From positions 1 to 48,504 of the forward strand of contig CAZQPP010000003.1 in the NCBI GenBank assembly GCA_964594295.1: 48,504 nucleotides of DNA. The letters run 5' to 3'. Below the pieces are notes generated by a model. The model saw only the letters and a list, made by a program, of their open reading frames with translations, had not been told where the DNA came from and searched no databases. The translations under genes and the position numbers were made by a program. The stretch comes from an uncultured Myxococcales bacterium. GTDB taxonomy: Bacteria; Myxococcota_A; UBA9042; UBA3505. Shown in pieces: positions 10,831 through 46,500 of this stretch (the first letter of the stretch is position 1; each line of letters opens with the position of its first letter).

Positions 10831-10856
10831 CGAAGATCACTGCCTGAAATGCGACC

Positions 10857-13699: not shown

Positions 13700-13766
13700 C
13701 GGGCGGCAGTGTACCCCCGGCCCGGCCATTGGGGAAACGAGGGTCGCGCCCACACCGAGCGTGTCC

Positions 13767-13795: not shown

Positions 13796-13801
13796 CGACG
13801 C

Positions 13802-14857: not shown

Positions 14858-14909
14858 AGCCGTGCGCCTGATAGGCTGGCGCCGTGAATCAACCTCCACG
14901 GGGGTAGGC

Positions 14910-18496: not shown

Positions 18497-18562
18497 CAGC
18501 TGGCTAGACGGAGGCTGTTGCGCATAGCGCAAACACCCCGTAGCCAGCTGTGCCGTGGCTAC
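18497..18562. terminator. nested inverted repeats between convergent genes (a possible bidirectional terminator or RNA structure)
   Basis: CAGCTGGCTA (18497-18506) pairs with TAGCCAGCTG (18541-18550). This encloses the hairpin TTGCGC-ATA-GCGCAA (18518-18532). A further GTAGCCA/TGGCTAC pair (18540-18546 / 18556-18562) overlaps the permease stop codon. No U-tract follows. Confidence 0.3.
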
Positions 18563-26363: not shown

Positions 26364-26366
26364 CGG

Positions 26367-29883: not shown

Positions 29884-29893
29884 GCCCGGATCC

Positions 29894-30703: not shown

Positions 30704-30718
30704 CGCGGTCGCCGGAGC

Positions 30719-32113: not shown

Positions 32114-32445
32114 GGTCATCCTCCGTCCCCGATCCGATGTGGCGGAGCGGAGACGGTGCCACGGGGCGGGGGACGATGGCAAGCCGACGGGCTCGAATCA
32201 GGGCCGCCGGCGTGCCGGCGTGCGCCCTCGCAGGCACTTCGCCTTTGACACCGCGCCGGCCATCCCGTACTTCAGCCCGCGTGGCCCGGGCTTGTCGTCC
32301 GGGCTCCGGTCCCTGTCGGGGCGGTCCTGCCGCCCATTCGCCCCGCGGTCTCTCGCGGGCATCCGACGCGCCGGCTCCAGTGCCGGGCCATGTGAGCACT
32401 CGGCGCCCCCGGAGCAGGATCGCTTCCCGTGCCGAAGGAGCCTCC

Positions 32446-32749: not shown

Positions 32750-34261
32750 ATGGAAACGGAAACACCCGTACCGCCGCTTCGCCCCGGCATAGTCATCGAG
32801 CCCGAGCGCAGCCGGCTCGTCGACGAAGCTCTCGACCGCCGCATCCGGCTGGACCCCCGGGGGATCGAGGCGGCGCAGGCGCTCGTGGAGCCCACCACCA
32901 TCGCCGGGCTGGCGCACGCCCTCGACACCGAGCCCGAGGCCGCCGCCCGCATCGTGGCGTCTTTCGAACGCCTGAACCTCCTCGACACGCCCGAGGCGCG
33001 GGCCCTCGTGGCCAGCGCGGCGCCCATGCGGCAGGTCCAGCAGGCAGGTGAGTCCGAGGTGCGCCTGCTGATCCGCCAAGACGCGGCCTTCGACTGCGTG
33101 ATGTGCGGGTCATGCTGCCTGGGGCAGAACATCGGGCCCATCAGCGACGAGGACCTCCGCAGGCTCCACGAGGGCTGGGACCTCGTCTCCGAGAAGGTCC
33201 GGAGCCCCCGGGGCTTCTTCTTCTCGAGCGGTGGAGAGGAGGGGCCGGGGGAAGAGCGCGTCTTCTGCTACTCGCCCCGGGGCGCTTGCGTCTTCCTCTC
33301 CGAGGAGGGCCGCTGCATGGTCCATGGGCTGCTGGGCGGGGACCGGAAGCCGGCGATCTGCCAGATCTTCCCCTTCCAGTTCGTCGCCACCCCGGACGGC
33401 GTCGCCGTCTCGCTGCAGATGGAGTGTCGCTGCTATCACGAGGCGCGCCGGGGCCGGAAGCTCAGCGCCCAGCAGGATGAGCTGCGGCGCATGCTGGCCC
33501 TCGTGCCGCGCCTCGGCCGAATACCGACGCGCCTGGTCCTCGAAGAGGGGCAGGTGATCTCCTGGGAGGAGTGGGTCAGGCTCGAGGAGGAGCTGCACGG
33601 AGCGGTCGACGCTTCGGCGGGCGACGACCTAGCGACTCTCGAAGCTCTCCGCGATGCCGTCGACGCCCTCCGCGACGAGAGCCCCGGAGGGGATGCCGAC
33701 GGCCTGAAGGCGGAGAACCTGAGGAGCGATCTGAAGACCTTCGCGGCGGAGCTGGGGCGGGTGGCGACCGACCTGCGCGCTGCGTGCCAGGAGGGGAGCG
33801 ACGAGGCGGAGCACCTGGTGCGGACGACCTCCCTAGACGCCTTGCTCGTGGCGCTCGGGGCCCTCCGGACCCACGCGGACCAGGTGCTCCGGCCCCTCGA
33901 GGCCGACGGTGGGCAGGCCCTCTTCCGAGACAACGCGCACAACCACCTGATGGGCAAGCAGCTCCTCGCGGCCCCGGACGTCGTGGCCGGTCTGGCTCGC
34001 TTCACCTTCTGCTGGCTCGCCGTCCGCGCCCTGATGATCGCCCGCTCACGCGAGGTGAGGAGGGCGCACCTGGCGACCCAGGACGTGACGGACGCCCTCG
34101 GCGTGCTGACCTTCCTCTTTCGCAGCGGGCCGTTCCTGGAGGTGCTGAGGCACTTCGACTGGACCCTGCGCAGCCTCTTCTTCGAGCGGCTGCCCGAGCT
34201 GATCGAGCACCGCCGCGAGCTGGTGTCGGCGGAGACGAGGCTCGAGCACTTCCGCGCTTGA
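32750..34261 (+). CDS. YkgJ-family cysteine-cluster (CxxCxxCC) protein with long N- and C-terminal extensions
   Basis: Track ORF of 503 aa. FDCVMCGSCCLG, GACVFLSEEGRCMVHG and KPAICQIFPF match the UPF0153/YkgJ pattern. Confidence 0.8.
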   Translation: METETPVPPLRPGIVIEPERSRLVDEALDRRIRLDPRGIEAAQALVEPTTIAGLAHALDTEPEAAARIVASFERLNLLDTPEARALVASAAPMRQVQQAGESEVRLLIRQDAAFDCVMCGSCCLGQNIGPISDEDLRRLHEGWDLVSEKVRSPRGFFFSSGGEEGPGEERVFCYSPRGACVFLSEEGRCMVHGLLGGDRKPAICQIFPFQFVATPDGVAVSLQMECRCYHEARRGRKLSAQQDELRRMLALVPRLGRIPTRLVLEEGQVISWEEWVRLEEELHGAVDASAGDDLATLEALRDAVDALRDESPGGDADGLKAENLRSDLKTFAAELGRVATDLRAACQEGSDEAEHLVRTTSLDALLVALGALRTHADQVLRPLEADGGQALFRDNAHNHLMGKQLLAAPDVVAGLARFTFCWLAVRALMIARSREVRRAHLATQDVTDALGVLTFLFRSGPFLEVLRHFDWTLRSLFFERLPELIEHRRELVSAETRLEHFRA

Positions 34262-34268
34262 GCGGTGA

Positions 34269-35786
34269 TCACCGGCGGAGCGTCAGCGCGCCGGTGGGAC
34301 AGGCTGCCACGCAGGCCCGCGCGCTCCGCGTGAGCGCTTCTTTGAGGGTCGCGCCGGGCGGAGGGGCCACGCGGCGTTGGGCGCCGCGGCCCATGATCGC
34401 CAGGCCTACCGGCTCCGAGGCCTCCCGGGCGGCGTGCACGCACGCGCCGCAGCCGATGCACTTGCCCGGCTCGAACACGACCTCCGGGTGGCTGGTGTCG
34501 CGCTGCAGCGACCCGCGCGGGACCGGGTGGCGGCCCCGGCGGGCGCCGTAGCGGCTCGCGAGGGCGCGCAGCTCGCAGTCGTCCGCGGAGCCGCAGGCGC
34601 ACTCCAGGCACCTGCTGGCTTCGCGGGCGGCCTCCTCGGCGCTTCGGATCTCGCCCGCCGCGGGGCCGTGGGGCGCTCGTCGGGCCAGGCGGACGAGGTC
34701 ATCCCGGCCGACCTTCCCCGCGCGGGACGTGTGCTGCCTCGCTGAGGGCGCGGGCTCGGCGCCGGCGAGCCGCCGGCCGACCGCGCCGGCGAGGGCGCGA
34801 CCGGAGGCGCAGGCCCGGACGAGACGCTCGGTCGGCGCGACCGCGGCGCCGCCCGCGAACACCCCCTTCGCCGATGTCTCGAGCGTCGTGGTGTCGGTCC
34901 AGACGAGGCCCTCGTCCAGTCGGAGCCCTTGCTCTTGTCGCGCCGGGTCGCCGGCTCCGGTGGCGATGAGGACGGCGTCGTACGCCCGGCGCAGCTGCTC
35001 GAGGGGCAGGTCTCGCCCGACGCAGCACCCGGTCTGCGCCTCCAAGCCCAGCTCCCGGAGCGCCGTCAGGTCCGCCTCGAGGACGGCGGCCGGGAGGGCG
35101 CCCGCCGAGACCTGCTCTCGGAGAGACCCGCCGAGCTCGCCGGCGCGCTCGAAGACCGTGCACCGGTGGCCCCGCACGAGGAGGTGGAAGGCCGCGGACA
35201 GGGCTGTCGGCCCGCCGCCCACGACCGCCACGCGGCGCTCCGTCGGTTTCGCCGGCTCCGGGGTGTGGCCGGGGGCCGCTGCGGCGTATCGCTCCAGGCG
35301 CTGGATCGAGCCCGGCGCGTCGAGGCGTCCGCGGCGGCAGGCGGTCTCGCAGGGGGCGTGGCAGAGGTGGGCGAGCGTCCCTGGCAGCGCGTGGGCGGCG
35401 CGCACGAGGGCCGCGGCCTCGTCGAGGCGCCCCGCCGACAGGTGGAGCAACACGGAGGGGACGTCGAGGCGAGCGGGACAGGCGGCGCTGCAGGGCCCCG
35501 TGCAGTCCCCGAGGTGCTCGGCGAGGAGGAGCTCCACCGCCGATCGTCTCAACTCGAGGAGGCGCGCCGACTCGGTCACCACCACCATGCCCTCGCGAGC
35601 GCGGGTGGCGCAGGCGGGGACCGGCTCCCCGTCGGCCTCGACGACGCAGAGCATGCACGAAGCCGTCGCCGGTCGACCCTCGCCGTAGCACAGGGTGGGC
35701 ACCTCGACCCCCGCGGCCCGGGCGACGTCGAGGATGGAGGCGCCGCCTGCGGCGTTGACCGGGGTGCCGTTGAGGTCGAGCTTCAT
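34269..35786 (-). CDS. 2Fe-2S ferredoxin domain fused to a GltD-like NAD(P)H/FAD oxidoreductase, with C-terminal 4Fe-4S motifs
   Basis: Track ORF of 505 aa. The N-terminus is NuoG/Fdh-type (MKLDLNGTPV...LCYGEG...ASCMLCVVE...PACAT). CTGPCSAACP and CHAPCETACRRG are GltD N-terminal clusters. VAVVGGGPTALSAA is a dinucleotide fold. KGVFAGGAAV and the C-terminal CIGCGACVHAA...CVAACPTGAL are also present. Confidence 0.85.
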   Translation of the reverse strand: MKLDLNGTPVNAAGGASILDVARAAGVEVPTLCYGEGRPATASCMLCVVEADGEPVPACATRAREGMVVVTESARLLELRRSAVELLLAEHLGDCTGPCSAACPARLDVPSVLLHLSAGRLDEAAALVRAAHALPGTLAHLCHAPCETACRRGRLDAPGSIQRLERYAAAAPGHTPEPAKPTERRVAVVGGGPTALSAAFHLLVRGHRCTVFERAGELGGSLREQVSAGALPAAVLEADLTALRELGLEAQTGCCVGRDLPLEQLRRAYDAVLIATGAGDPARQEQGLRLDEGLVWTDTTTLETSAKGVFAGGAAVAPTERLVRACASGRALAGAVGRRLAGAEPAPSARQHTSRAGKVGRDDLVRLARRAPHGPAAGEIRSAEEAAREASRCLECACGSADDCELRALASRYGARRGRHPVPRGSLQRDTSHPEVVFEPGKCIGCGACVHAAREASEPVGLAIMGRGAQRRVAPPPGATLKEALTRSARACVAACPTGALTLRR

Positions 35787-38128
35787 CTGCCTTCACCTCC
35801 GTCGCGCGGAGAGACCGTGGTGACGGCGTCGAAGACACACACGTCGGCGCAGATCCCGCAGCGGCTGCACGAGGAGAGATCGACGGCGTGGCGTTCGTAG
35901 GGTCGCGCCTCGATGGCCCCGTCGGGGCATGCCGCGGCGCAACGGGTGCAGCCCGTGCAGGCGTCGCCGATGCTCACGTCGACGAGCGCCCGGCAGCGCC
36001 CGGCCGGGCAGATCCCGCGCACGTGGGCCTCGTACTCCTCGCGGAAGTGGCGAAGGGTCGTCAGCACGGGGCTGGGCGCCGAGCGCCCGAGGCCGCACTG
36101 GCTGCCCCCCTCGACCAGCGCGCTCAGGCTCTCGAGCTCCGCGAGGTGTGCAGCCGAGGCGCGCCCCTCGCACAGGTCCTCGAGCAGGTCCCGTATTCGG
36201 CGGGTGCCGACCCGGCAGTAGGTGCACTTGCCGCAGGACTCGGCCTGCGTGAACTCGAGGAAGTAGCGCGCCACGTCCACCATGCAGTCGCGCTCGTCGA
36301 GCACCACGAGACCGCCCGAGCCCATCATGGCGCCGATCTCCCCGAGGGACTCGTAGTCCAGCGGGGTGTCCAGCAGAGCGGCGGGTACGCAGCCCCCGAG
36401 GGGACCGCCGACGAGGATCGCCTTGAGCGCGTGGCCCTCGAGCACGCCGCCGCCGATGTCGAAGACCAGCTCCTTCAGCGTCGTGCCCAGCTCCACCTCG
36501 ACGAGGCCGCCGTGCACGACCTTGCCCGCCAGCGACAAGACCTTGGTCCCGGCCGCCTTCTCGGAGCCGAGGTCCGCAAAGGCGGCGGCGCCGTTGCGGA
36601 GGATCCACGGCACCATGGCGAAGGTCTCGACGTTGCTCACCAGCGTCGGGGCGCCGTCCAGGCCGTGCTCTGCGGGGTAGGGCGGGCGGACGGTCGGGAT
36701 GGGGCGGGCGCCCTCGAGGGAGGCGATGAGCGCCGTCTCTTCGCCGCAGACGAAGGCGCCGGCGCCGCGGCTCAGCGAGACTCGAAGCGGCGCCATCGCT
36801 TCCGGCCACCCGCCCTCCTCGAGCCGGTCGATGGCCTCGGCGATGCGCCGCACCGCGTGGGGGTACTCGGTTCGAACGAAGACCACCGCCTCGGAGGCGC
36901 CCACCGCGTGGGCGGCGATGGCCATGCCCTCGAGAACGCGGAAGGGGAAGGACTCGAGGAGCATGCGATCCATGAACGCACCCGGATCGCCTTCGTCCCC
37001 GTTGCAGATGACCGTCTTGGCGCCGCCCGGCGTGGATCTGACGAGCTCCCACTTGCGGCCCGCGGGGAAGCCCGCGCCGCCGCGGCCGCGGAGACCGCTG
37101 CGCGAGACCTCGTCGCAGACCTCGGCCGCCGTCATCTCCAGGGCGCGCCGCAACGCTTCGAAGCCCCCGCGCGCGACGTAGCCCTCGAGGTCGAGGGGCT
37201 CGCCCTCGCCGGGGTGCTCGGTGGCCACGTGGCGCTGCCGTTCTCGCTGCTCGGTCAGCCACGGCTCCCACGCATCGGCGAGGTATGCGTCCGGCAGCGC
37301 GCGGGTGTCCTCGGTGACGAGGCCGTCGACCACGAAGTCGAGGGCGCGCCGCACGCGCTGCGCGATGCCCCTGGGCGGGGCGTGGCGCCGGAGGATGTTT
37401 CGGGCGGCGGCGGGGTCGACGTTGGCGTAGCGCGTGACCGCGCCGCTCGGCTCCACGATCTCCACCAGCGGCGTGGCGCTGCACAGCAGCTCGCAGCTCG
37501 CGGCCTGTAGCGCGGCGGGAGCTCGCAGGTCGGCGATGCTCCGGGAGAAGCTCCCGAACACACGATCCGCGCCTCGAGCCGCGCAGCAGGAGTCCACGCA
37601 GACGCGCACCTGTACGCCTCCGCGGCCGGCGGGCGCCTGCGGGGCCGAGGGCGGGAGCAGCGCCTCGCGGGCCTGCTCGAGGAGGCGTGGCGCGTCGTCG
37701 GGCGCCACGGGACCGTAGAGGGTCTGGTCGATCTGCACGGCGGGGGCGAGGGCGCAGCAGCCGAGGCAGGCGACCTTGGAGACGGTGAACTCACCGTCGG
37801 GGTCGGTGTCGCGGCCGTCCTCAAGATCGAGGGCGCGGATGAAGGCGTCCGTGACCCTGTCTGCGCCGCGCAGGTGGCAGGCGGTGCCGTGGCAGACGCG
37901 CACGAGGTGGCGCCCGGCAGGCTCGAAGCGAAAGGCCGCGTAGAAGCTCGCCACGCCGTAGAGGTCGGCGCGCGGGCGCTCGAGGGCGTCGGCGAGCCGG
38001 GCCATGGCCTCGGGAGGGAGGTAGCCGCAGGCGCGCTGCACGTCGTGCAGCAGGTTCAGGACCTGCCTGCCGCCGCCCCCGTGGCGCTCGAGCGCGGACT
38101 CCGCCGCGGCGATGGGCGACGGGGCCAT
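35783..38128 (-). CDS. fused NuoE-like (2Fe-2S) and NuoF-like (FMN/NADH, 4Fe-4S) subunit with a C-terminal 2x[4Fe-4S] ferredoxin domain
   Basis: From chimeric track ORF 35783..39997, starting at ATG 38128 (residue 624), giving 781 aa. NuoE motifs are VCHGTACHLRG and VACLGCCALAP. NuoF motifs are GLRGRGGAGFPAGRKWE, ICNGDEGDPGAF and ESCGKCTYCRVG. The tail carries CTGCTRCAAACPDGAI and CSRCGICADVC. Confidence 0.9.
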   Translation of the reverse strand: MAPSPIAAAESALERHGGGGRQVLNLLHDVQRACGYLPPEAMARLADALERPRADLYGVASFYAAFRFEPAGRHLVRVCHGTACHLRGADRVTDAFIRALDLEDGRDTDPDGEFTVSKVACLGCCALAPAVQIDQTLYGPVAPDDAPRLLEQAREALLPPSAPQAPAGRGGVQVRVCVDSCCAARGADRVFGSFSRSIADLRAPAALQAASCELLCSATPLVEIVEPSGAVTRYANVDPAAARNILRRHAPPRGIAQRVRRALDFVVDGLVTEDTRALPDAYLADAWEPWLTEQRERQRHVATEHPGEGEPLDLEGYVARGGFEALRRALEMTAAEVCDEVSRSGLRGRGGAGFPAGRKWELVRSTPGGAKTVICNGDEGDPGAFMDRMLLESFPFRVLEGMAIAAHAVGASEAVVFVRTEYPHAVRRIAEAIDRLEEGGWPEAMAPLRVSLSRGAGAFVCGEETALIASLEGARPIPTVRPPYPAEHGLDGAPTLVSNVETFAMVPWILRNGAAAFADLGSEKAAGTKVLSLAGKVVHGGLVEVELGTTLKELVFDIGGGVLEGHALKAILVGGPLGGCVPAALLDTPLDYESLGEIGAMMGSGGLVVLDERDCMVDVARYFLEFTQAESCGKCTYCRVGTRRIRDLLEDLCEGRASAAHLAELESLSALVEGGSQCGLGRSAPSPVLTTLRHFREEYEAHVRGICPAGRCRALVDVSIGDACTGCTRCAAACPDGAIEARPYERHAVDLSSCSRCGICADVCVFDAVTTVSPRDGGEGR

Positions 38129-41100
38129 CACGGCGCTCCGATGCACAGGAGCTGGCCCTCGGTGCGCAAGAACATGCGCGCCTCGCCCCCGACGCGTGCG
38201 AAGGCCGGGCTCGCCGACATCTTCAGGCCTGCCAGGGAGGCCTCCCCGAGCACCCGCGGGTTGCCCTCGGCGGCCATGACCAGGGCGCGGCCCTTGCGGG
38301 TGAAGAGCAGCAGGCGGTCGCCGACGAGGCTCGGCGACACGTAGGTGCTCCCGCCGATGCGGTGGGTCCACAGGCGCTCGCCCGACTTCAGGTCGAAGCA
38401 GCTCAGCCTGCCGCTGCTCGAGACGGTGAAGACGAGCGCTCCGTTGCTCACCGGGCTCGCCACGTCGGGGAGGCTGCCCACCTCGCGCACCCACGCCGTG
38501 TGGCTCTCGGTCACGTCTCCGCGTCCTCCCCGGCGCAGCGCGAAGATGCCGTGTCCCTCCATGACCCCGACGACGAGCTCGCCGGCCAGCACGGGAGAGG
38601 GCGTCGCGAAGCCGCCGAGCTGCTTGGAGCGCCAGATCTCCTCTCCGGTGGCCGCGTCGTACTCGATGACCCACGGCGGGGCTGCCGTGACAAGGCGCGG
38701 GCCCTCCGGCCCGTCCGCGACGAAGGGGGTCGTCCAGGAGGCCTCCACGTCGCGTTCGCGCTTCCAGCTCAGCCGGCCTGTGGCGGCGTCGTAGGAGCGC
38801 AGGGAGGAGAGGTCCCCGCTGGGGCCTGTCTGGTCGAAGGGCACGATGAGCTGATCGCGCCAGATGATGGGCGAGCTGGCGTGGCCCCACTGGTTCTGGG
38901 GCAGGCCGAGGGCGTGCGCCCAGACCCTGCGCCCGGCGCGGTCGACGGCGTGCAGGTCTCCGTTGGCGAAGATCGCGTAGACACGCTTGCCGTCGGTCGC
39001 CGGCGTCGAGGCCGCGAAGACGTCTCGCTCGTAGACCTCCGGCGCCTCCTTGGGGCTGGTGCGGAGCTCGCCTGCCTCGTAGCGCCACAGCGTGTCGCCG
39101 GTCGCTGCGTCGAAGGCGAAGATCGCGCGGCGGTCCTTGTTCGCGCCGACGGCGTAGACGCGGCCGTCCCAGACGACGGGCGAGCCCGCGCCAGCGAGCG
39201 GCACGGGCGCGCGCCAGACCACGTTGCGGCCGGTCTCCACGTCGAAGTCGAGGGGCACCTCGGTGAGGGCTGTGCGTCCGGCGCCGCCGGGGCCGCGGAA
39301 GCGCGGCCAACGCGCCTCCGCTCCGCCGTGCTCGACGGCCGCCGGCACGGCCCGCTCGGGGGCGCGCAGCGCGCCCGCGACGGCGAAAGAGCTCGCGAGC
39401 AGGAGCCCGCCCGTCGCGGCGACGGACCAGCGACCCTGGCGTTTGCGCCGGCGTGCCGAGTCGGGCGCTTGCGGCTCGGTCGGGGCCTCCGGCGACGTGC
39501 GGAGCGAGCTGCCGATGCGCAGCGCGAGGAAGAAGATCACGAGCCCGAAGACCAGGAGCGTGCCTCCGGTCTCGCTGAGGGCGCGCCCCCGGAAGTGGGC
39601 ACTGCGCAGCTCCAGATCGAGGGCGCGCACGCGCTCCTCGAGGTCGACGGTGTCGGCGCCCGCCGGAGCGCTCGCCAGGCTCCGCTTGGCCTCCGTCAGG
39701 GCCTCCGGCGGCGCGAGGATGCTCGGCTCCTCGGCGGCCGGGCTGTTGAAGAGCAGGAGCGTCGCCACGACGAGGCAGAAGACGGCCGAGAGCGCGGCCG
39801 AGAGGTCGGCGGCGCGGCGAATGGCCTTTCGCGAGGGAGGCTCGTCGGTGCGTGTCGAGGCGGGCGCTCCAGGGAGCACCCCCGCTGCCAGGGGCCGCGC
39901 CGGAGCCGCGGCTTTCTCCTCCGGGCACCTGTCGTAGCAGCGCCCGCAGGCGACACAGTGGCCCGGGTCGGCCTCGTAGTCCTCGCGGCGCCGCCACCCC
40001 GAGAGGCTCAGGAGCTTGGCCCAGAACAGGAGGCCGAGCCAGAGGCCGCCGACCATCGCGCCGGCGCGGACGCGGGCCTCGGTCGCGTCGGCCTCGGCCG
40101 TGACCTCCGACGTGCTACGCGCCGCGCGGCGGAAGGCCTCGATCTGGTCTTCGGCGACGGCGTCCAGAGCCTCGCCCCGTTCCACGGCGGCGAGGGCGTC
40201 CCCGAGGCGGACCGCCTCGTGCGTGCGGGCCAGCGGCTCGCCGACGAGGTGGCCCGCCGCGCCCGACGCGAGCAGGACCACCGGCAGCAGCGCCAGGATG
40301 AGCCGGATCCGCTTGCGTCCGGCCGCGCGCTGCGGAGCCCGGAGGCTCTCCGTGGGCACGTCGATAGCCTCGTAGGGGCAGCTCTCCTCGCACAGGCGGC
40401 ACTGTACGCACCGATCGGTGAAGATGCCGAGCCGCCAACGCGCCAGCGGGGCGAGCATCGACAGGAGCGCGCCGTAGGGACAGAGGTAGCGGCAGTAGGG
40501 GCGGCCGACGAACATCGAGAGCAGCACGAGGCTCCCGCCGAAGACCAGCATCGGCGTGGTCCCGCTCAGGCGGAAGATGCCCACGAAGGGGTCGTACTCG
40601 CACACGACGAAGGCGGCTCCGGTCGCCGCGAGGACCACGGCGAGGGCGAGGTAGGCGTGGCGCACCATGCGGAGGCCGTCTTCCAGCCACCGGGGCACCC
40701 GCACCGGCCACACCAGCACGGCCTCCTGCAGGGCGCCGTGGGGACACACGGCGGCGCAGAACACACGCCCGAACAGGAGCACGAAGGCCAGCGGAGCGAG
40801 GAAGAAGGCCACGACAGCGAGGGGCGCCGCGTAGCCGGGGTCGAAGACGGCGAGGGCGACGTTCTGCAGCGAGCCGATGGCGCAGACGCAGCCTTCGCGC
40901 CAGAACCCGAAGTAGGCGAGGCTGAATAGGCTCAGCCACACCAGGCCTCGTCGCGAGCGCTGCCGGTGCACGAGATAGGCCGCGGCGGCGAGGGCGAGGC
41001 AGAGCACGGCGATGTCGAGGTGCTCGAGGAGCAGCGAGCGCGGCGCCGGGGTCTGGAGGATCGGCGCCACGTAGTCCGGCCCCAGGTCCGGCGGCGGGAA

Positions 41101-41190
41101 GCGCTGCTCGGCGGCCGCGCGCGCCACGGGCAGCGAGAGCAGGACCGGCGTTGCCAACCATGGCAGTGCTCCGGCGGCCGTGCGCCTCAC
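38128..41190 (-). CDS. NapH/NosR-type membrane iron-sulfur protein fused in frame to a PQQ-like beta-propeller (1020 aa)
   Basis: From chimeric track ORF 38128..41505, starting at GTG 41190 (residue 106, a GTGA overlap with the upstream stop). Two CX3CP motifs (GRVFCAAVCPHG and GRPYCRYLCPYG) lie between hydrophobic helices, and two 4Fe-4S motifs are present (CVQCRLCEESCP and CVACGRCYDRCP). Further hydrophobic segments follow, then RRRKRQGRWSVAATGGLLLASSFAVAGAL, WPRFRGPGGAGR (W codon at 39309) and a ~390-aa propeller running to the stop codon. Confidence 0.85.
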   Translation of the reverse strand: MRRTAAGALPWLATPVLLSLPVARAAAEQRFPPPDLGPDYVAPILQTPAPRSLLLEHLDIAVLCLALAAAAYLVHRQRSRRGLVWLSLFSLAYFGFWREGCVCAIGSLQNVALAVFDPGYAAPLAVVAFFLAPLAFVLLFGRVFCAAVCPHGALQEAVLVWPVRVPRWLEDGLRMVRHAYLALAVVLAATGAAFVVCEYDPFVGIFRLSGTTPMLVFGGSLVLLSMFVGRPYCRYLCPYGALLSMLAPLARWRLGIFTDRCVQCRLCEESCPYEAIDVPTESLRAPQRAAGRKRIRLILALLPVVLLASGAAGHLVGEPLARTHEAVRLGDALAAVERGEALDAVAEDQIEAFRRAARSTSEVTAEADATEARVRAGAMVGGLWLGLLFWAKLLSLSGWRRREDYEADPGHCVACGRCYDRCPEEKAAAPARPLAAGVLPGAPASTRTDEPPSRKAIRRAADLSAALSAVFCLVVATLLLFNSPAAEEPSILAPPEALTEAKRSLASAPAGADTVDLEERVRALDLELRSAHFRGRALSETGGTLLVFGLVIFFLALRIGSSLRTSPEAPTEPQAPDSARRRKRQGRWSVAATGGLLLASSFAVAGALRAPERAVPAAVEHGGAEARWPRFRGPGGAGRTALTEVPLDFDVETGRNVVWRAPVPLAGAGSPVVWDGRVYAVGANKDRRAIFAFDAATGDTLWRYEAGELRTSPKEAPEVYERDVFAASTPATDGKRVYAIFANGDLHAVDRAGRRVWAHALGLPQNQWGHASSPIIWRDQLIVPFDQTGPSGDLSSLRSYDAATGRLSWKRERDVEASWTTPFVADGPEGPRLVTAAPPWVIEYDAATGEEIWRSKQLGGFATPSPVLAGELVVGVMEGHGIFALRRGGRGDVTESHTAWVREVGSLPDVASPVSNGALVFTVSSSGRLSCFDLKSGERLWTHRIGGSTYVSPSLVGDRLLLFTRKGRALVMAAEGNPRVLGEASLAGLKMSASPAFARVGGEARMFLRTEGQLLCIGAP

Positions 41191-41744
41191 CGGTCGGTGC
41201 TCTTGAGGATGTAGGGATTGGCCGCCGGTACGCGGGAGATCGCCTCGGCCGGGCACTTCGCCCCGATCGCGCACTCGTTGCAGCGGACGCAGCGGTCGTG
41301 GCGGATCTGCAAGAAGACCGATCCGTTGCCGAAGTCCCTGCAGGCCTTTACGCAGCGCCCGCAGGCCACGCACAGGTCCTCGTCGATGCTGTACTCGTAG
41401 TAGGGCTCCCGCACGTAGCGCCGCTGCAGCGCGTCCGTCGGGCACACGAGGTTCTCCGCGCCCGAGGTGCGGGCCGCGTGCTCGAGCTCGAAGTAGGCCG
41501 TGCACAAATCACAGTAGCCGCAGATGGCGTGCACCCGCACCGCGCGAACGGCCGAGGGGTTCTGCACGCAGTTGGTGGCGCAGCGGCCGCAGGCGATGCA
41601 CTTGTCGGGGTCCAGCTGCCAGACCGTGGCGCCGGACGTGCCGATCCAGACGAAGGCTCCGGCGGAGCCCGCGACGCCGGCGAGCAGCGCCTTCCGTGCG
41701 CCCCTTCGCAGGAACTCGCGGCGCGTCAGCGCTCCGTCAGCCAT
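41187..41744 (-). CDS. Tat-exported 4Fe-4S polyferredoxin (NapG-like)
   Basis: Track ORF of 185 aa. The twin-arginine motif TRREFLRRG is followed by a hydrophobic stretch. Four Cys clusters are present (CIACGRCATNC, CGYCDLC...CP, CVACGRCVKAC and CVRCNECAIGAKCP). Confidence 0.85.
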   Translation of the reverse strand: MADGALTRREFLRRGARKALLAGVAGSAGAFVWIGTSGATVWQLDPDKCIACGRCATNCVQNPSAVRAVRVHAICGYCDLCTAYFELEHAARTSGAENLVCPTDALQRRYVREPYYEYSIDEDLCVACGRCVKACRDFGNGSVFLQIRHDRCVRCNECAIGAKCPAEAISRVPAANPYILKSTDR

Positions 41745-41949
41745 CGGTCACCACCTCTCGGAGCCCGCAGCGGGCCGCGCGCACGCAGCCCCGGCAGCCG
41801 GCGGAGCGAAGCCGCGGCGCCTCGCAGGTGAGGGCCTGGCGCGGCGCCCGCTTGTCGGCGAGGGAGAGCCAGGCGACGCCTCCGAGGGCGCCTGCTGCCG
41901 CGAGTCGGCCCAGCGTGCGCAAGGCGTGACGACGGGACACCGCTTTCAC
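41737..41949 (-). CDS. small (70 aa) protein with a twin-arginine-type signal and a C-terminal C-x10-C-x2-C-x5-C motif
   Basis: A track ORF whose start overlaps the upstream stop by 4 nt and whose stop overlaps the NapG-like start by 8 nt. The sequence is MKAVSRRHALRTLGRLAAAGALGGVAWLSLA...CEAPRLRSAGCRGCVRAARC. Its Arg/Ala-rich composition lowers confidence that it is translated. Confidence 0.55.
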   Translation of the reverse strand: MKAVSRRHALRTLGRLAAAGALGGVAWLSLADKRAPRQALTCEAPRLRSAGCRGCVRAARCGLREVVTDG

Positions 41950-42908
41950 CGCTGCACCTCCTCGAGCTCTTCGAAGGCTCGGACCTTCATGGAAACCGGG
42001 TCGAGGACGTAGACAATCCCCGCGGCGTCGGTGGCCACGTCGAGGCCCTCGGTGCCCGGCTCAAACCAGCTCGGGCCGGCCACCATGGACACCAGCTTCC
42101 CGTCGGCCGCGAGCACCTTGACGCGCGCGATGGCCTTCTCGGCCGTGACGACGCGGCCGCCGCTCAGCGGCGCGATGTTGATCGGGTTGCAGCACCCGCA
42201 GAAGCGCTCGGTCGACGTGCCGTAGGCGCCGAAGGCCCCGAGCGGAGCGCCGTCGAAGGTGTAGAGCTCGAGGCGATGGCGGCCGGGGTTGGCTACGACC
42301 AGCCGGTCGGGCAGCGCGAAGAGGTCCAGGTAGGGGCGGTAGACGACGATCCCCGGGATGCCGCGCGCGTCGTCCTTCTCGGCGATCCGGGAGAGCAGCT
42401 TTCCTTCGTTGTCGTAGCGCAGCACCGTCATGGCGCCGGCGTCACCCACGAACACGGAGTCACCGGTCACGGCGACAGACCTCGGCATCGACCTCTCGTC
42501 GCCCGAGCTCCAGCGCTGCAGGACGCTGCCGTCGTCGCCCACGGCCGCGACGTGATCGGGGGCGCACACCAGCAGACGATCGGGCGGCGCGACGGTGACG
42601 CAGTAGGGCTCGAAGGCCAGCTTGATCTCACCTGCCGGGGAGCCGTCGGAGCCGAAGACCCGGATGCTCCTGTCACCGGCGACGAGCACGACCGGCCCAC
42701 CCGAGCGCTCGTCGACCGCGACGGCGCGCGCCTCGTCGAAGCCCGTGGCGATCGCGCCGATCTCTGTGTAGCCGTGGAGCTCCGCCCCGGCGGGCGGTGC
42801 CCGCATGTCCTCGAGCCTCGGCGGCTCGTCGTCTCGGCCCAGGCTCAGCGCGAGCGCGGCCGCGAGACAGGCCAGGGCCGCCAGGACCGCCATCAAACCA
42901 CGGCTCAC
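41946..42908 (-). CDS. NHL-repeat-like six-bladed beta-propeller protein with an N-terminal membrane anchor
   Basis: From chimeric track ORF 41946..43748, starting at GTG 42908 (residue 281), which has GGGAGGGGAG upstream. The anchor is MAVLAALACLAAALALSL. Repeated segments of the type 'A.avAvd..g...VaD..n.ri..f...G' are present, along with an unusual FCGCCNP motif. Confidence 0.75.
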   Translation of the reverse strand: MSRGLMAVLAALACLAAALALSLGRDDEPPRLEDMRAPPAGAELHGYTEIGAIATGFDEARAVAVDERSGGPVVLVAGDRSIRVFGSDGSPAGEIKLAFEPYCVTVAPPDRLLVCAPDHVAAVGDDGSVLQRWSSGDERSMPRSVAVTGDSVFVGDAGAMTVLRYDNEGKLLSRIAEKDDARGIPGIVVYRPYLDLFALPDRLVVANPGRHRLELYTFDGAPLGAFGAYGTSTERFCGCCNPINIAPLSGGRVVTAEKAIARVKVLAADGKLVSMVAGPSWFEPGTEGLDVATDAAGIVYVLDPVSMKVRAFEELEEVQR

Positions 42909-44362
42909 CTGCTCCCCTCCCGCACGTCGACACAGAGCATCCGGGTGTGATCGCGGACGAGGAGCCGCCCTCCGGCCAGGGCCATGGGCGCCCACGCGTC
43001 GGCGCCGTCCAGGATCTTCACGCTGGCGCGCTCGCGGTAGCCGGCGGGGGTCGCGTCGACCAGGGTGAGGACGCCGCTCGGGCTCCGGGTGGAGCCGCTG
43101 TCGAGGACCCAGAGCATGCCCTGGGCGAGGATCCAGTCGCCGTAGCCCTTGTAAAAGCGCCTGCGGGCGCCGCTCGTCCACACCTCCTCCCCGTCCTTGC
43201 TCAGGCACACCAGCTCGCCGCTCGGGCGCACCGCGTAGAGGTGGCCGTCGTGGAAGATGGGCGCGTGCAGCTCGACTCCCAAGACCTCCGCGTCTCGCTT
43301 CCACAGCAGCTCCGCCGCGACCGAGGCGCCCTCGTCGCGGAGGCGGAGCATGACGCAGCCGGCGTCGTATCCCGAGCACACCAGGACCCGGTCCTTGCCC
43401 ACGACGACGGGCTCGGGCACCCGGGCGATGGAGGCGCGGTTGGTCGTCTCGGTGAACAGGACGCTCCCGTCCTCCCCGTCGACGCCGGCGACCCCCGGCA
43501 TGCCCGAGTAGAGGTAGATGCGGCGTTCGCCGAGCGTCATGGGCGTGATCGAGGCGTGGGTCATTCCCCAAAGCGAGGTGTTGGGCGCTTCCCACAGGGC
43601 TTCGCCCGTCTCGAGCTCCAGGGCGGTCATCAGGACCTTGGGTCCAGCCGGGGCGACGATGACTCTGCCGCCGTCGACGAGCGGGCTCTGCGCGGCGTAC
43701 CAGTCCGGAATCCGGGTGCCGTAGCGGCCCACGAGGTCTACGGCCCACCGCAGCGCGCCGGTCCGCGCGTCGAGACAGGTGAGGTGCCCCTTCGGCCCGA
43801 GCGACACGACCGAGTCGCCGGCGACGGCGGGCACGGTCCGCGACATGCCGTGGTTTCGGCGGAGCTCGACGGCGTAGGCGTAGCTCCAGATCTCCCGGCC
43901 GTCGTCCAGAGACAGGCTGCGAAGCACGTCGCGCTGCCCTCTGCGGTCGTAGTCGAGGAGGAAGACGCGCCCGCGGTGGACGGCAGCACCGGCGTGCCCC
44001 TCACCGAGCTCCGTCGCCCAGAGCAGCTTCGGCTCGCCGGACCAGCTCGCCGCGAGGCGGACCTCCTCGGATCTCTGGCGATCCAGGTTGGGGCCGCGGA
44101 AGCCGGGCCAGCTCCCTGTCGCCTCCGACGGGCTCCCGGCGCCCGTCGTGAGGGTCCCCCGGGCGTTGGGTGGTGGGCCGGCGGAGCGCTTCGGAGGACG
44201 CGTGCGCTCCAGCTCGCTCTCCTTCGGGATCCGCGGCCCCACGTCGATCTGCGTCGCGCGGGCGAGCCAGACGACACCGGCGATGGCCAGGGCCGCCACC
44301 GCGACCGGTACCGTCTTTGCCAGAGCGTCGGCTCGCAATAGACCCTCGTGCTGTGGGAGCAT
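42905..44362 (-). CDS. PQQ-like beta-propeller repeat protein with an N-terminal membrane anchor
   Basis: From track ORF 42905..44602, trimmed to ATG 44362 (MLPQHEGLLRADALAKTVPVAVAALAIAGVVWLA). WPGFRGPNLDRQRS is followed by repeats such as SLSLDDGREIW, CLDARTGALRW and ALELETGEALW. Confidence 0.85.
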   Translation of the reverse strand: MLPQHEGLLRADALAKTVPVAVAALAIAGVVWLARATQIDVGPRIPKESELERTRPPKRSAGPPPNARGTLTTGAGSPSEATGSWPGFRGPNLDRQRSEEVRLAASWSGEPKLLWATELGEGHAGAAVHRGRVFLLDYDRRGQRDVLRSLSLDDGREIWSYAYAVELRRNHGMSRTVPAVAGDSVVSLGPKGHLTCLDARTGALRWAVDLVGRYGTRIPDWYAAQSPLVDGGRVIVAPAGPKVLMTALELETGEALWEAPNTSLWGMTHASITPMTLGERRIYLYSGMPGVAGVDGEDGSVLFTETTNRASIARVPEPVVVGKDRVLVCSGYDAGCVMLRLRDEGASVAAELLWKRDAEVLGVELHAPIFHDGHLYAVRPSGELVCLSKDGEEVWTSGARRRFYKGYGDWILAQGMLWVLDSGSTRSPSGVLTLVDATPAGYRERASVKILDGADAWAPMALAGGRLLVRDHTRMLCVDVREGSR

Positions 44363-44369
44363 CCGGAGG

Positions 44370-44399
44370 CCGGTGGGAGCCCGTACGGTAGCACACCGG
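44370..44399. promoter_or_regulatory. 30-bp nested dyad CCGGTG-N5-CCGTACGG-N5-CACCGG in the 68-bp divergent intergenic region (candidate operator)
   Basis: It lies between ATG 44362 (minus strand) and ATG 44431 (plus strand). The outer arms are 6 bp and the central palindrome is 8 bp, with symmetric 5-nt spacers. The call rests on sequence pattern only. Confidence 0.35.
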
Positions 44400-44430
44400 T
44401 GCCCCGAAGACTCCGAGCGAGCCGACGCCG

Positions 44431-46278
44431 ATGTCCGAGCCCACGCCGCACCCCGAGGTCCCGAAGTCAACCGGCCTGGCGCGCCAGCTCCTCCGGGTCG
44501 CGGAGGCTCTGGCCGAGCTCGCGGCCCCTCGTCCCGACGTGGAGAGCCTGGCGCGGGAGGTGGAGGTGCTCGCGCGTGTCGCAGGAGAGGCGGCCGCGTC
44601 ATGCCCGGCGGAAGACGCCGACCGGGAGGGCCTGAGGGTCCTGCTCGACCGGGCCGAGGAGCTCGCGGACGTGGCTGGGGCGCTCTCGGCCGGGCTCCCG
44701 CGGGCCGCTCACGGCGGCCGGGAGCCGCCCACTGCCTTCACCGACGCCGTCGGCGATCTACGCTCGGCCGCCGCCGCCGCCGGCATCGACGCGGACCTCC
44801 CGCCGGCTCGCCCTCTGCGTATGGGCTCGAGCGCCCTCACCGGTGAGACCGCCCGGCTCTACCGCGCGTCATCCGCCGCCTTGTACTCCACGGTGCTCGT
44901 CTTCACCCCGCACACCAGCGTCGACGACCTCCTCTTCAACGTCGCCGCGGTGCGCGAGATCGCGCCGGCTCGGCTCGGCTTCGGCTTCTTGTGGGCGTTT
45001 CGGAGCAGCGTCGAGGATGCTGGATTCCTCCACGCCGTCGTCGATCCGGTGAGCCGCCTGCTCTGCCGCCTCGATTGGGAGAGGTCGCCGCACGACGAGC
45101 TCTCGGCCAGGGTGCGCATGTGGACGAGGTCCATGCCGGAGGCGCACGCGCTGCCCATCTCGCTCGCGAAGTCCATCCTGGGGGCCGCCGGCGCCATCGG
45201 GGATGAGGCCACGGTCGACGAGCTCCTGTCGCGGGCCGGGGCGAGGTGGAGCGACGGGCGAGAGGGCGACAGCCTCGTGAAGTCGAGGAGCCCCTTCGAC
45301 TCCAAGTCGAAGCTCCTCGCCGCCAAAGACGCGGCGGCGAGGGCGAACCCGCGTATCTTGGAAGACCTGAGGTCCGTCTACTACGAGCTCGAGAGGCTCG
45401 ACTGGATGTGCGGGAACAAGCCCGTAAGGAAGATCGACTACATCGACGAGGGCTACGTCGAGCTCTGCCGGCAGCACCCCGACGAGTTCCCGAATGTCAC
45501 CGTGTTCGCCTCGGCCACGACGCGCAACACGAAGGAGCTCGACATGTTCTACGGGCGTGACGCGGTGGACGTCGAGGAGGCGGTGCGCCTCACGCGACTT
45601 CACGAGGGGCACCCCGACTCCCCCGAGCACATGGCGGACACGACCACCCGCCTCGGTGTGGTGCTCGGCTACCCCGAGTGCTGTTCGCGAGCCTTCGCCG
45701 AGGACCAGGAGGCCTTTCGGGGCAACAGCGAGTCCATCATGCTCGCGCGGCGCGTCGCCGAGCCAGGTCGGGCACCGGCGGCCAGCAAGCTCTTCTTCCG
45801 CTGGTATTTCCCATGCTCGTTGAGCTGTGAGGCGAGCCTCGCGCGAGCCCGACAGCTGACCGATTTCGTGCGCGAGCGCTGCGGCGAGGAGCTGCACTGC
45901 CAGCTCGAGGAGAGCCTCGAGACTCCCTCCTTGATGCTCCTCGACAAGAGGACCCAGCTCATCGACATCCACCCCGAGCACGAGGTCTCCGAGCGCTTCA
46001 CATACAGGGCCGGCGAGGTCTTCGGCGAGGACGAGCGCCTCGAGCGCGTGCGTGCCGGCGACACCATGGTCGTCGAGGAGGGGCGCATCTCCATCCTGAA
46101 GCAGGGCAAGGAGACGGCGCGGCTCAATATGGACGCCTTCTTGTGGTGGAACGAGGAGGTGCTGCACCGGGACTTCTGGCGCGTCTTCCTCGAGCGCCGG
46201 GCGAGGAGAAACACGGACCAGGCCGGCGACATGTGGACCCGCTCCCGGCGCGACGGGATGCTCCGGCGGACGAGCTGA
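44431..46278 (+). CDS. hypothetical protein with a C-terminal DUF483-like GYPxCC / PCSxxCxxS module
   Basis: Track ORF of 615 aa. LGVVLGYPECCSRAFAEDQ and FFRWYFPCSLSCEASLARARQL resemble the DUF483 pattern as I remember it. The N-terminal ~140 aa are Ala/Arg/Glu-rich. Confidence 0.75.
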   Translation: MSEPTPHPEVPKSTGLARQLLRVAEALAELAAPRPDVESLAREVEVLARVAGEAAASCPAEDADREGLRVLLDRAEELADVAGALSAGLPRAAHGGREPPTAFTDAVGDLRSAAAAAGIDADLPPARPLRMGSSALTGETARLYRASSAALYSTVLVFTPHTSVDDLLFNVAAVREIAPARLGFGFLWAFRSSVEDAGFLHAVVDPVSRLLCRLDWERSPHDELSARVRMWTRSMPEAHALPISLAKSILGAAGAIGDEATVDELLSRAGARWSDGREGDSLVKSRSPFDSKSKLLAAKDAAARANPRILEDLRSVYYELERLDWMCGNKPVRKIDYIDEGYVELCRQHPDEFPNVTVFASATTRNTKELDMFYGRDAVDVEEAVRLTRLHEGHPDSPEHMADTTTRLGVVLGYPECCSRAFAEDQEAFRGNSESIMLARRVAEPGRAPAASKLFFRWYFPCSLSCEASLARARQLTDFVRERCGEELHCQLEESLETPSLMLLDKRTQLIDIHPEHEVSERFTYRAGEVFGEDERLERVRAGDTMVVEEGRISILKQGKETARLNMDAFLWWNEEVLHRDFWRVFLERRARRNTDQAGDMWTRSRRDGMLRRTS

Positions 46279-46500
46279 CTCATCGCAGAGATCGCTGAGA
46301 CCGCAGAGAGCTCTCCTTTGGAGAATCAGGCTCCTCTGCGAGCTCCGCGACCTCCGCGGTGAGATCTCTCGGGGCTGAACGGGCGGTCTTACCTCCGCGC
46401 CGTCCCGCCAACGCTGCTCGATCCGGCCGGAGCGTTGACACGCGAGCGGCGGGCGTGATCCTATTTGGAGCAGACGGAACGGTAGCTGGTGAGGCTCCCC

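Follow-up and report, generated by a model that had tools for sequence, protein, structure and literature searches.

A Myxococcales operon encoding a Bfu-type cytoplasmic module, a NapH-like membrane protein and exported beta-propellers: a putative trans-membrane electron-transfer system

Introduction

Proteins of the NapH, NosR, PceC and CcoG-like kinds are widespread, and both the source of the electrons that reach their cytoplasmic iron-sulfur (Fe-S) clusters and the way in which these electrons cross the membrane are unsettled. NapH-like proteins have been described as modular trans-membrane Fe-S electron carriers that are paired with periplasmic propeller enzymes, namely NosZ, NirS and ExaA (PMC8238504). 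The systems concerned (NosR-NosZ, NirI-NirS, PceC and the NapH-like proteins found with ExaA) are defined by a periplasmic flavin mononucleotide (FMN)-binding domain that is flavinylated by ApbE (Meheust et al. 2021, PMC8238504). In the cytoplasm, the complexes of the Bfu family follow a scheme in which NAD(H) and ferredoxin react at a BfuBC core that does not vary and BfuA wires this core to a variable third-substrate module (Schut et al. 2022, PMC9304861). Many Bfu clades have no assigned third substrate and, among the described types, none is linked to NapH, just Mbh-Bfu and Nuo-Bfu having been proposed to be membrane-bound (PMC9304861). This work deals with a locus in which genes of both kinds stand in one operon: seven genes, called G1 to G7, at positions 34269-44362 of a stretch of 48,504 nucleotides (nt) from an uncultured Myxococcales bacterium (assembly GCA_964594295.1, contig CAZQPP010000003.1, forward strand), which is referred to as the window.

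Heme-containing complexes are also relevant for comparison. In sulfate reducers, Hmc, Tmc and DsrMKJOP link a periplasmic Fe-S subunit, exported by the twin-arginine translocation (Tat) pathway, to cytoplasmic Fe-S subunits across the membrane. These complexes use membrane subunits of the NrfD or NarI type, hemes b and c, and HdrD-like CCG proteins.

On sequence grounds, the cluster described here is rated as a new Bfu type and, at the same time, a new NapH-like system, real and widespread. The chances that G1 to G7 form one heme-free, Fe-S-based trans-membrane electron-transfer complex are, in our estimate, about even. A first-pass annotation of this DNA had stated that no complex of this composition was known, and in agreement with it no description of the gene set was found in a search of 8.3 million full texts or in the two most relevant surveys, including their supplements.

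Organization of the operon

The genes are labelled in operon order and all of them are located on the minus strand of the region 34269-44362:

G1, 42905-44362, minus strand, membrane-anchored beta-propeller of the BamB/PQQ_2 type, 485 amino acids (aa)
G2, 41946-42908, minus strand, N-terminally anchored six-bladed NHL beta-propeller, 320 aa
G3, 41737-41949, minus strand, twin-arginine protein with four Cys (C-x9-C-x2-C-x5-C), 70 aa
G4, 41187-41744, minus strand, Tat-exported polyferredoxin with four [4Fe-4S] motifs, 185 aa
G5, 38128-41190, minus strand, fusion of a NapH-like polytopic Fe-S protein and a propeller, 1020 aa
G6, 35783-38128, minus strand, fusion of BfuC and BfuB, 781 aa
G7, 34269-35786, minus strand, truncated BfuA, 505 aa

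Read directly from the sequence, the seven frames are open at these coordinates, and the successive junctions from G1/G2 to G6/G7 overlap by 4 (GTGA), 4 (GTGA), 8 (ATG...TGA), 4 (GTGA), 1 (TGATG) and 4 (ATGA) nt. This confirms the seven minus-strand coding sequences with overlapping junctions that the first-pass annotation had reported, and Pfam and family-model searches upheld its gene list and most of its domain calls. Its further statement that the overlaps leave no room for internal promoters does not follow, since promoters may sit inside coding sequence. A promoter consensus scan of 33800-44900 returned zero promoter-like sites, and the two terminator-like sites detected in the same interval are not above chance (1.1 expected). 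No RNA family was matched in an Rfam scan of the whole window, hence no clue to a riboswitch was obtained.

Two of the six overlaps hinge on the choice of start codon. The database gene call for G2 begins at an ATG 15 nt downstream (P0030, 315 aa) and that for G5 at a TTG 33 nt downstream (P0001, 1009 aa). The longer forms are preferred here because they yield positively charged N-terminal regions, as in the homologs, and because they follow GGAGG-like motifs; such motifs are present upstream of G2, G3, G4 and G7. Because the GC content of the window is so high (67-76%), long chance open reading frames (ORFs) are abundant, and 86 ORFs of at least 60 aa lie between 32000 and 48504. The seven frames all show a third-position GC of 0.85-0.93, which is a high-GC coding pattern, and their homologs are syntenic in other phyla. 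G1 to G7, including the 70-aa G3, are real genes and far beyond chance ORFs.

Conservation across phyla

A word-based protein search yielded 29 relatives of G5, three of which, with about 40% identity, belong to loci whose seven genes are ordered as in the window. When one genome for each GTDB species was scanned with the G5 motifs FGFxR[EK]GC[VI]C and F[VLI][IV]C[ERQ][YF]DPF, at least 600 stretches matched, and at least 593 loci encode a relative of G5. The locus-level counts given in this work rest on the best 80 of these at least 593 loci and, for some counts, on 83 related loci. A HMMER search with residues 1-640 of G5 (E 1e-30 or better) produced 375 cluster representatives of the NapH-like part, mostly of 420-460 aa.

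According to their record titles, the best 80 loci belong to Bacteroidota (about 26), Planctomycetota (about 24) and Verrucomicrobiota (about 14), the remaining ones being distributed among Omnitrophota, Aminicenantes, KSB1, Armatimonadetes, Fibrobacterota, Poribacteria, Aegiribacteria and metagenome-assembled genomes of Myxococcales. Cultured carriers are Draconibacterium sediminis JN14CK-3 (locus L033, NZ_JRHC01000001.1, about 2,167,000-2,177,600) and Sunxiuqinia elliptica CGMCC 1.9156. The order G1-G2-G3-G4-G5-G6-G7 recurs in the best 80 loci, which represent at least eight phyla. Neighbours were counted by tblastn with the window proteins in those loci with enough flanking sequence: G4 adjoins G5 in 58/58 loci, G2 is present in 55/58, G1 lies within 6 kb of G5 in 45/58, and G6 plus G7 are found downstream of G5 in 47/52. 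The first-pass annotation had named conservation of the gene set in related genomes as its own test, and the set is indeed kept together across phyla.

The cytoplasmic module G6/G7

G6 combines two subunits of the Bfu core. Its residues 1-155 correspond to BfuC, the NuoE-like [2Fe-2S] protein (Pfam 2Fe-2S_thioredx, PF01257, 1.3e-45, profile positions 3-144 of 145), and the BfuC-type residues C79, C84, C121 and C125 are kept in 49/49 homologs. The BfuB part matches the Pfam families Complex1_51K (3e-43) and NADH_4Fe-4S (3e-30) and carries a C-terminal di-cluster ferredoxin domain. Among the same 49 homologs, the FMN/NADH site and the N3-type [4Fe-4S] cluster are represented by the conserved GLRGRGGAGFP, CNGDEGDPGAF and GAGAFVCGEETAL stretches and by C632, C635, C638 and C678. 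Also conserved are Cys 181/182, 212 and 216, 707, 712, 724-734 and 754-764, which account for an N-terminal [2Fe-2S] cluster and a C-terminal pair of [4Fe-4S] clusters. These additional BfuB clusters are absent in non-bifurcating NuoF homologs (PMC9304861); both are present in G6.

The PDB chains most similar to G6 are 9bov_B, deposited as NADH dehydrogenase (quinone) (E 9e-177), 9n5u_B, which is NfnB (3e-173), 8oh5_B, the StnB subunit of Stn (9e-167), and 7t2r_B, subunit B of the NiFe hydrogenase NiFe-Bfu (4e-158). HydB chains come next, at about 1e-151 to 1e-156. The alignments with 9bov_B and 9n5u_B extend across residues 173-770/778 of G6. The initial description of this gene as a NuoE-NuoF fusion with FMN/NADH motifs holds for its domains, but it is a generic label, as the best PDB relatives are Bfu B subunits.

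G7 is related to the A subunits of the same complexes: 9bov_A (E 7e-79), NfnA (9n5u_A, 1e-78) and StnA (8oh5_C, 3e-68), the alignment with StnA being restricted to residues of about 6-295 and 459-671 of this 1172-residue chain. It keeps the [2Fe-2S] cluster, the His-ligated [4Fe-4S] cluster, the GltD-type Fe-S domain, the flavin adenine dinucleotide (FAD) half-domain and further C-terminal Fe-S motifs. Fer2_4 is matched in Pfam (3e-14), and C33/C44/C47/C59 and H91/C95/C99/C103 are at least 90% conserved in 43 homologs. A single Rossmann fold is present in this family (GxGxxG plus an acidic residue in 43/43), and in every short homolog about 120 residues lie between GxGxxG and the GVFA motif. 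The NADPH-binding Rossmann domain of NfnA and StnA was not found in G7 by alignment with the structure chains or by motif spacing. The C-terminal pterin-free domain resembling formate dehydrogenase (FDH-like) was not found either, since the end of G7 corresponds to residue 671-702 in chains of 963-1178 aa. For this reason the designation of G7 as a GltD-like FAD/NAD(P)H protein is wrong in this window.

An intact NADPH domain, with GGGNTAMD and GVFAAGD motifs, is retained in 5/53 relatives of G7, which points to its loss in most of the family. These long homologs (660-750 aa) come from four Verrucomicrobiota and one Omnitrophota (L010, positions 8014-10083; also L024, L026, L041 and L053). At the sequence level, G6 and G7 are members of the Bfu family and, having neither the NADPH site nor the FDH-like domain, fall outside Nfn and Stn. 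Judged by its motifs, the FMN site of G6 is the sole pyridine-nucleotide site left in the module of the window.

The closest solved relatives of G6/G7 are the soluble NfnABC and Stn complexes. The genes could thus encode a soluble transhydrogenase of that kind, lying by coincidence beside unrelated membrane and periplasmic proteins (G1-G5) that are fed by quinol or have no redox function, as might also be suggested by the NADPH domain of the five long G7 relatives and by five loci with G5 but no G6/G7 nearby. However, the G7 of the window and 48/53 relatives lack that domain, which makes the Nfn reaction impossible, and since the FDH-like domain is missing as well G6/G7 cannot be a stand-alone Nfn here. 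Besides, G5 and G6/G7 are adjacent in 47/52 loci from distant phyla, the stop codon of G5 overlaps the start of G6, and no other candidate partner for the cytoplasmic [4Fe-4S] pair of G5 is encoded in the cluster. A chance association of this kind is very improbable.

The NapH-like membrane protein G5

Residues 1-430 of G5 contain two Fer4_5 matches and a Fer4 match with two [4Fe-4S] motifs, and its propeller matches PQQ_2 (Pfam). The alignment of G5 with E. coli NapH spans 193 aa at 21% identity (E 9e-6) and takes in the two Fe-S motifs as well as both CX3CP motifs, FCAAVCP and YCRYLCP of G5 pairing with FCSWVCP and WCGHICP of NapH. The NapH-like nature assigned to G5 from the start is thus well founded, as a distant relationship: G5 scores 45.6 against a cutoff of 213.05 with TIGR02163 (NapH/MauN) and 37.6 against 234 with PRK09477 (NapH), both below the cutoffs. 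A search of PDB sequences with the NapH-like part returned generic ferredoxin motifs only (FwdF, NuoI) and no solved membrane domain of the NapH type.

Several features set G5 apart. The two Fe-S cluster motifs are separated by a 140-aa insertion with two transmembrane helices that E. coli NapH does not have, and, unlike NapH, G5 has a signal-like segment at its N-terminus and the conserved stretch ERFPPPDF. Fifteen Cys residues are invariant among the homologs, three of which, in GCVC and CEYDPF, are additional to those of NapH. A linker of three transmembrane helices leads to an eight-bladed propeller of the BamB/PQQ_2 type at residues of about 640-1020. The AlphaFold model of G5 has 10 transmembrane helices plus the propeller. 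The loops that bear the Fe-S motifs contain 12, 10 and 7 Lys plus Arg residues, and the alternate loops are acidic. The positive-inside rule, with which the AlphaFold helices agree, predicts that the Fe-S motifs are cytoplasmic and that the propeller and the GCVC/CEYDPF Cys residues are on the outside; loop charges and model thus support the periplasm-facing propeller that the initial description had assumed.

The NapH-like and propeller parts are fused in about 6/79 loci (the window, L001, L003, L005, L014 and L036). In the other loci, about 73/79, the NapH-like protein and a propeller anchored by three transmembrane helices are encoded by two adjacent genes, for instance at 9878-11203 and 11231-13090 of the D. 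sediminis locus (L033). Therefore, the fusion noted in the window exists there but is a minority state, and the usual form of the cluster has eight genes, with the NapH-like protein and the propeller split. The occurrence of both parts as fused and as separate proteins suggests, by the Rosetta-stone argument, that they are physically associated.

No match to FMN_bind or ApbE was detected in G1-G7 or in the Pfam lists of loci L001-L006. Genes for molybdopterin proteins, heme c proteins or methylamine dehydrogenase, which would correspond to the NapA, NapB, NapC and MauB partners, are absent from the operon and from its conserved neighbourhood.

For E. coli NapH, a reaction with quinol is assumed. 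By analogy, G6/G7 could, as has been proposed for Nuo-Bfu, pass electrons from NADH, alone or together with ferredoxin, to a membrane quinone, and the NapGH-like pair G4-G5 could re-oxidise the quinol on behalf of G4 and the periplasm, so that no direct tunnelling across the membrane would be needed. G5 is, after all, a remote NapH homolog with both CX3CP motifs, and a membrane Bfu type that reduces quinone has been put forward (PMC9304861). However, the score of G5 with the NapH/MauN model is very low (45.6 vs 213), and the family-specific Cys at both membrane faces and the two-helix insertion have no counterpart in E. coli NapH. Moreover, the potential of menaquinone (about -74 mV) is not between those of NADH and ferredoxin, so that a core of the bifurcating type would be needed just for extra driving force. 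Such a loop through the quinone pool is considered unlikely.

The exported Fe-S proteins G3 and G4

G4 possesses a TRREFL twin-arginine signal, and the RR pair and 16 Cys residues are invariant in 73/73 homologs. Since 16 invariant Cys suffice for it, four [4Fe-4S] clusters are possible, and several Fer4 families of Pfam match the protein. These data sustain its identification as a Tat polyferredoxin with four clusters. The comparison with NapG made in the first-pass annotation is adequate for the architecture, but similarity to E. coli NapG does not exceed the level of motifs.

The small G3 protein has no Pfam or NCBIfam match. It shows an SRR motif, a hydrophobic stretch and four Cys residues. 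Small ORFs of this type, in which (S/N)RR(E/Q)F is combined with a hydrophobic stretch and four Cys, precede G4 on the same strand in most of the loci that bear G4. Their Cys pattern is mostly C-x5-9-C-x2-C-x5-C-x-LPxA, and several Bacteroidales loci have C-x2-C-x5-C-x6-C. The recurrence of the RR pair and the four Cys in these equivalent ORFs corroborates the earlier view of G3 as a Cys4 protein with an RR signal.

The propellers and the terminal site

No heme, molybdenum, copper or pyrroloquinoline quinone (PQQ) signature was found among the G1-G7 proteins by motif, Pfam and family-model checks. In particular, CxxCH is present in none of the seven, in line with the lack of CxxCH heme noted at first.

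G1 carries one N-terminal hydrophobic segment (residues 13-31) and a PQQ_2 domain (1.1e-26 in Pfam). With TIGR03075, the PQQ dehydrogenase model, G1 scores 22.6 and G5 50.9 against a cutoff of 480; PF01011 gives 22.5 against 26.7 for G1, and the BamB family models remain far below their cutoffs for G1 and for the G5 propeller. On these family scores, membership of the G1 and G5 propellers in the PQQ quinoproteins and in BamB was rejected. The anchor and the fold of the "anchored PQQ-like propeller" reported in the first-pass annotation are correct, but "PQQ-like" is a fold label, the scores being far below the thresholds of PQQ enzymes. Both propellers look like BamB-type scaffolds. In G1, Ser149 and Ser226 of the window protein occupy positions at which 48/50 homologs have Cys, suggesting that both partners of a probable disulfide have been lost together.

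In Foldseek, the G5 propeller comes closest to BamB, XoxF/PedH and tetrathionate hydrolase, the last being a propeller without cofactor whose substrate is a sulfur compound.

The AlphaFold model of G2 (mean confidence score, pLDDT, 91.9) consists of a helix at residues 3-23 followed by a six-bladed propeller. Its best Foldseek matches are the NHL domains of TRIM2, Thin and Brat (E about 1e-16, TM-scores 0.7-0.8; 1.1e-16 and 0.71/0.80 for TRIM2), and PAL was also returned. No Pfam NHL match is obtained for the G2 of the window, and PF01436 is precomputed for most of its homologs; model and fold search agree with the anchored NHL-like propeller proposed initially.

The CuZ site of NosZ is made up of seven His residues in the propeller. 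His residues conserved at 90% or more number two in G1 (H171 and H269) and none in G2, and the homolog alignment of the G5 propeller has no invariant His. Thus, NosZ identity was rejected because the G1, G2 and G5 propellers lack conserved His ligands. Clade III or "lactonase-type" NosZ was likewise rejected, as those proteins sit beside cytochrome genes in other taxa (PMC13477213).

G2 contains a G-C-C-N-P motif, with vicinal Cys239-Cys240, that is invariant in 64/64 and 48/48 homologs. These residues are the best candidate for a terminal redox site and, judging from conservation, the sole chemically suggestive one. Dithiol/disulfide chemistry is therefore favoured, on a sulfur-containing or a protein substrate, although with low confidence.

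Three more propeller paralogs of the PQQ_2/BamB type are encoded in the window, bringing its total to seven propeller genes:

10848-12248, plus strand, PQQ_2/BamB-type propeller, 39% identical to a propeller gene located after G7 in L003 and about as close to the G5 propeller
12245-14029, minus strand, PQQ_2/BamB-type propeller
14595-16145, plus strand, PQQ_2/BamB-type propeller

Genomic surroundings

The seventh propeller gene belongs to a four-gene module:

23845-25065, minus strand, ACSF4/PQQ_2 propeller (Pfam)
22553-23848, minus strand, family 4 glycosyltransferase (GT4) (Pfam)
21873-22556, minus strand, ATPase of the ATP-binding cassette (ABC) type (Pfam)
18559-21876, minus strand, double-FtsX permease of the MacB type, 1105 aa (Pfam)

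In D. sediminis the corresponding propeller-GT4-ATPase-permease module, with a permease of about 1100 aa, is directly 3' of the redox cluster. The four genes, in this order, immediately follow G7 in Bacteroidota, Aminicenantes and KSB1, and in Planctomycetota they stand immediately ahead of G1. Within flanks of 10 kb, 34/83 loci have one or more of the GT4, ATPase and permease genes, and 22 have GT4 and ATPase jointly. The module is linked to the redox operon by co-occurrence only. In the window, about 9 kb with genes for branched-chain amino-acid transport and an acyl-CoA synthetase separate it from G7.

This neighbourhood, together with the scaffold-like propellers, invites a different interpretation of the operon. 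Its products could deliver low-potential electrons to the periplasm for a non-respiratory purpose, such as the reduction or repair of envelope proteins or lipids or the defence against oxygen and oxidants, with the propeller-GT4-MacB module making or exporting a glycoconjugate. The four-gene module is placed beside the cluster in two positions across phyla and is complete in the window, the propellers look like BamB-type scaffolds and not like cofactor enzymes, and G2 has a vicinal dithiol. Genes of the Bat aerotolerance type (VWA, BatD, TPR) follow the cluster in one species. However, the co-occurrence is incomplete, unrelated transport genes stand between the module and the operon in the window, and nothing connects the chemistry of GT4 or MacB with electron transfer. 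A core of the bifurcation type with at least 10 Fe-S clusters would also be a costly housekeeping donor. The probability of such a maintenance role is, in our judgement, low.

The Bat-operon-like genes just mentioned are a TPR gene, BatD and two VWA genes, which lie after the cluster and an extra propeller gene in L003 (18575-23057) and L004 (10579-15061). Among the related loci, Bat-like genes beside the cluster are restricted to this pair.

The two genes that flank the operon were considered as parts of the system and rejected, as they have no homolog in the 83 related loci. These and the remaining genes of the window that were annotated are the following:

44431-46278, plus strand, divergent 615-aa gene, 68 bp from the start of G1, with a weak DUF483 match (2.4e-5)
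32750-34261, plus strand, convergent 503-aa gene with a zinc- or iron-chelating CxxCxxCC (YkgJ-type) domain, ending 7 nt from the stop codon of G7
25269-32182, minus strand, branched-chain amino-acid ABC transporter (binding protein, two permeases, ATPases) and an AMP-binding gene resembling acyl-CoA synthetases
5678-9028, plus strand, 1116-aa protein with a phosphoesterase-family domain
1-4308, minus strand, protein of more than 1400 aa with Ser/Thr kinase, AAA_16 and TPR domains, running off the start of the window
46486-48504, plus strand, family 9 glycoside hydrolase (GH9), running off the end of the window

A possible route for electrons

The gene structure, domain identities, conservation of cofactor motifs, gene order across phyla and topology set out above are the demonstrated basis for a model of one trans-membrane complex, in which flow from the cytoplasm to the periplasm is favoured. 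The FMN of G6 would be the site of electron exchange with NADH, and the C-terminal [4Fe-4S] pair of the same protein probably that with ferredoxin; ferredoxin is a likely second cytoplasmic partner because G6/G7 belong to a family of flavin-based electron-bifurcating complexes. G7, as a cut-down BfuA, would wire the G6 core to the third substrate, and this would be the cytoplasmic [4Fe-4S] pair of G5 instead of a soluble molecule. Since the core is complete, the NADPH site of BfuA has been lost and the only other redox proteins encoded are G5, G4 and G3, the membrane and periplasmic part would constitute the third-substrate module. Inside G5, the first station of the electrons would be the two CX3CP motifs, on the inner side, and the second the three invariant Cys that are specific to the family (GCVC and CEYDPF), on the predicted outer side. 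G4, as a ferredoxin with four clusters, and G3, as a small protein with four Cys, would then receive them and hand them on to the membrane-anchored propellers, the Cys-Cys pair of G2 being the candidate terminal site.

Several points weigh against this proposal. The membrane core is roughly 30 A thick and G5 has no obvious cofactor spanning it. Given the quinol reaction attributed to E. coli NapH, the membrane step may run via the quinone pool. FAD binding by G7 is uncertain because the Asp of the C-terminal FAD motif "GD" is present in just 11/43 homologs and is Ala in the window protein. In the lineages with a long G7, the cytoplasmic module may be an Nfn-type transhydrogenase or use NADPH, and in 5/52 loci G6/G7 are missing beside G5. 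The fold searches of G2 and G5 returned generic NHL and BamB-type matches without a catalytic clue, and the frequent GT4/MacB-type ABC neighbourhood hints at an envelope-related rather than a respiratory role. That the proteins assemble, the path and direction of the electrons, the use of ferredoxin or confurcation, and the terminal chemistry are what we infer from the genes.

In its most specific form, the proposal is that of the first Bfu-family complex in which a NapH-type protein wires a bifurcating or confurcating core to exported ferredoxins and cofactor-less propellers, providing a heme- and quinone-independent exit for the electrons of NADH and ferredoxin that ends in vicinal-dithiol chemistry at an NHL propeller. 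This is put forward tentatively, as a possibility open to considerable doubt.

If true, such a direct-exit route would be widespread in anaerobic bacteria of the PVC and FCB groups, and it would show directly, for the first time, that electrons enter NapH/NosR-type proteins at their cytoplasmic clusters. The genetic tie, across phyla, between a NapH-like protein and a defined cytoplasmic NADH/ferredoxin module makes the question of membrane crossing testable. The cluster would also give the Bfu family a member directed to the membrane and periplasm, and it would be the first functional context for some of the abundant BamB/PQQ_2-type and NHL propellers of Planctomycetota, Verrucomicrobiota and Bacteroidota. 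Genetics and biochemistry are feasible in the two cultured carriers, D. sediminis JN14CK-3 and S. elliptica CGMCC 1.9156.

Comparison with known systems

The complexes of sulfate reducers are similar to the system proposed here in general layout only. The NrfD/NarI-type subunits, the hemes and the HdrD-like CCG proteins of Hmc, Tmc and DsrMKJOP have no equivalent in G1-G7 according to Pfam and the CxxCH check.

As for the propellers, that of G5 resembles Acidithiobacillus ferrooxidans tetrathionate hydrolase (6l8a) and BamB, which are also eight-bladed, of the PQQ_2 type and devoid of an organic cofactor. The identity with them is 16-19%, and the likeness, found by Foldseek, is structural.

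NapGH of E. coli (NapH b2204, NapG b2205) likewise pairs a Tat-exported four-cluster ferredoxin with a polytopic protein that has two CX3CP motifs and, on the cytoplasmic side, two [4Fe-4S] motifs. G5 differs from NapH in its predicted signal peptide, its extra N-terminal region, the 140-aa insertion, the extra Cys residues and the fused or adjacent propeller, and the operon has no NapA, NapB, NapC, heme or molybdenum.

The NapH-like systems surveyed previously (PMC8238504) and G5 are alike in that an Fe-S membrane carrier serves a periplasmic partner, which is often a beta-propeller. However, G5 has no FMN domain and is accompanied by a Tat polyferredoxin instead, its propellers lack the hallmarks of CuZ, heme d1 and PQQ, and a cytoplasmic NADH/ferredoxin module, not reported for those systems, is co-encoded with it.

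The closest relatives of the cytoplasmic module are Nfn-Bfu and Stn, represented by NfnABC of Caldicellulosiruptor saccharolyticus (9n5u) and StnABC of Sporomusa ovata (8oh5). They share with G6 the full set of BfuC and BfuB cofactors. With G7, NfnA and StnA share the N-terminal [2Fe-2S] and the His-ligated cluster, the FAD half-domain, the Fe-S domain of the GltD type and the clusters at the C-terminus. In contrast to these complexes, BfuC and BfuB are fused in G6, G7 is devoid of the NADPH domain and of the FDH-like domain of about 500 aa, and the genes of the module stand in the window beside those for exported Fe-S proteins and a membrane protein of the NapH-like kind.

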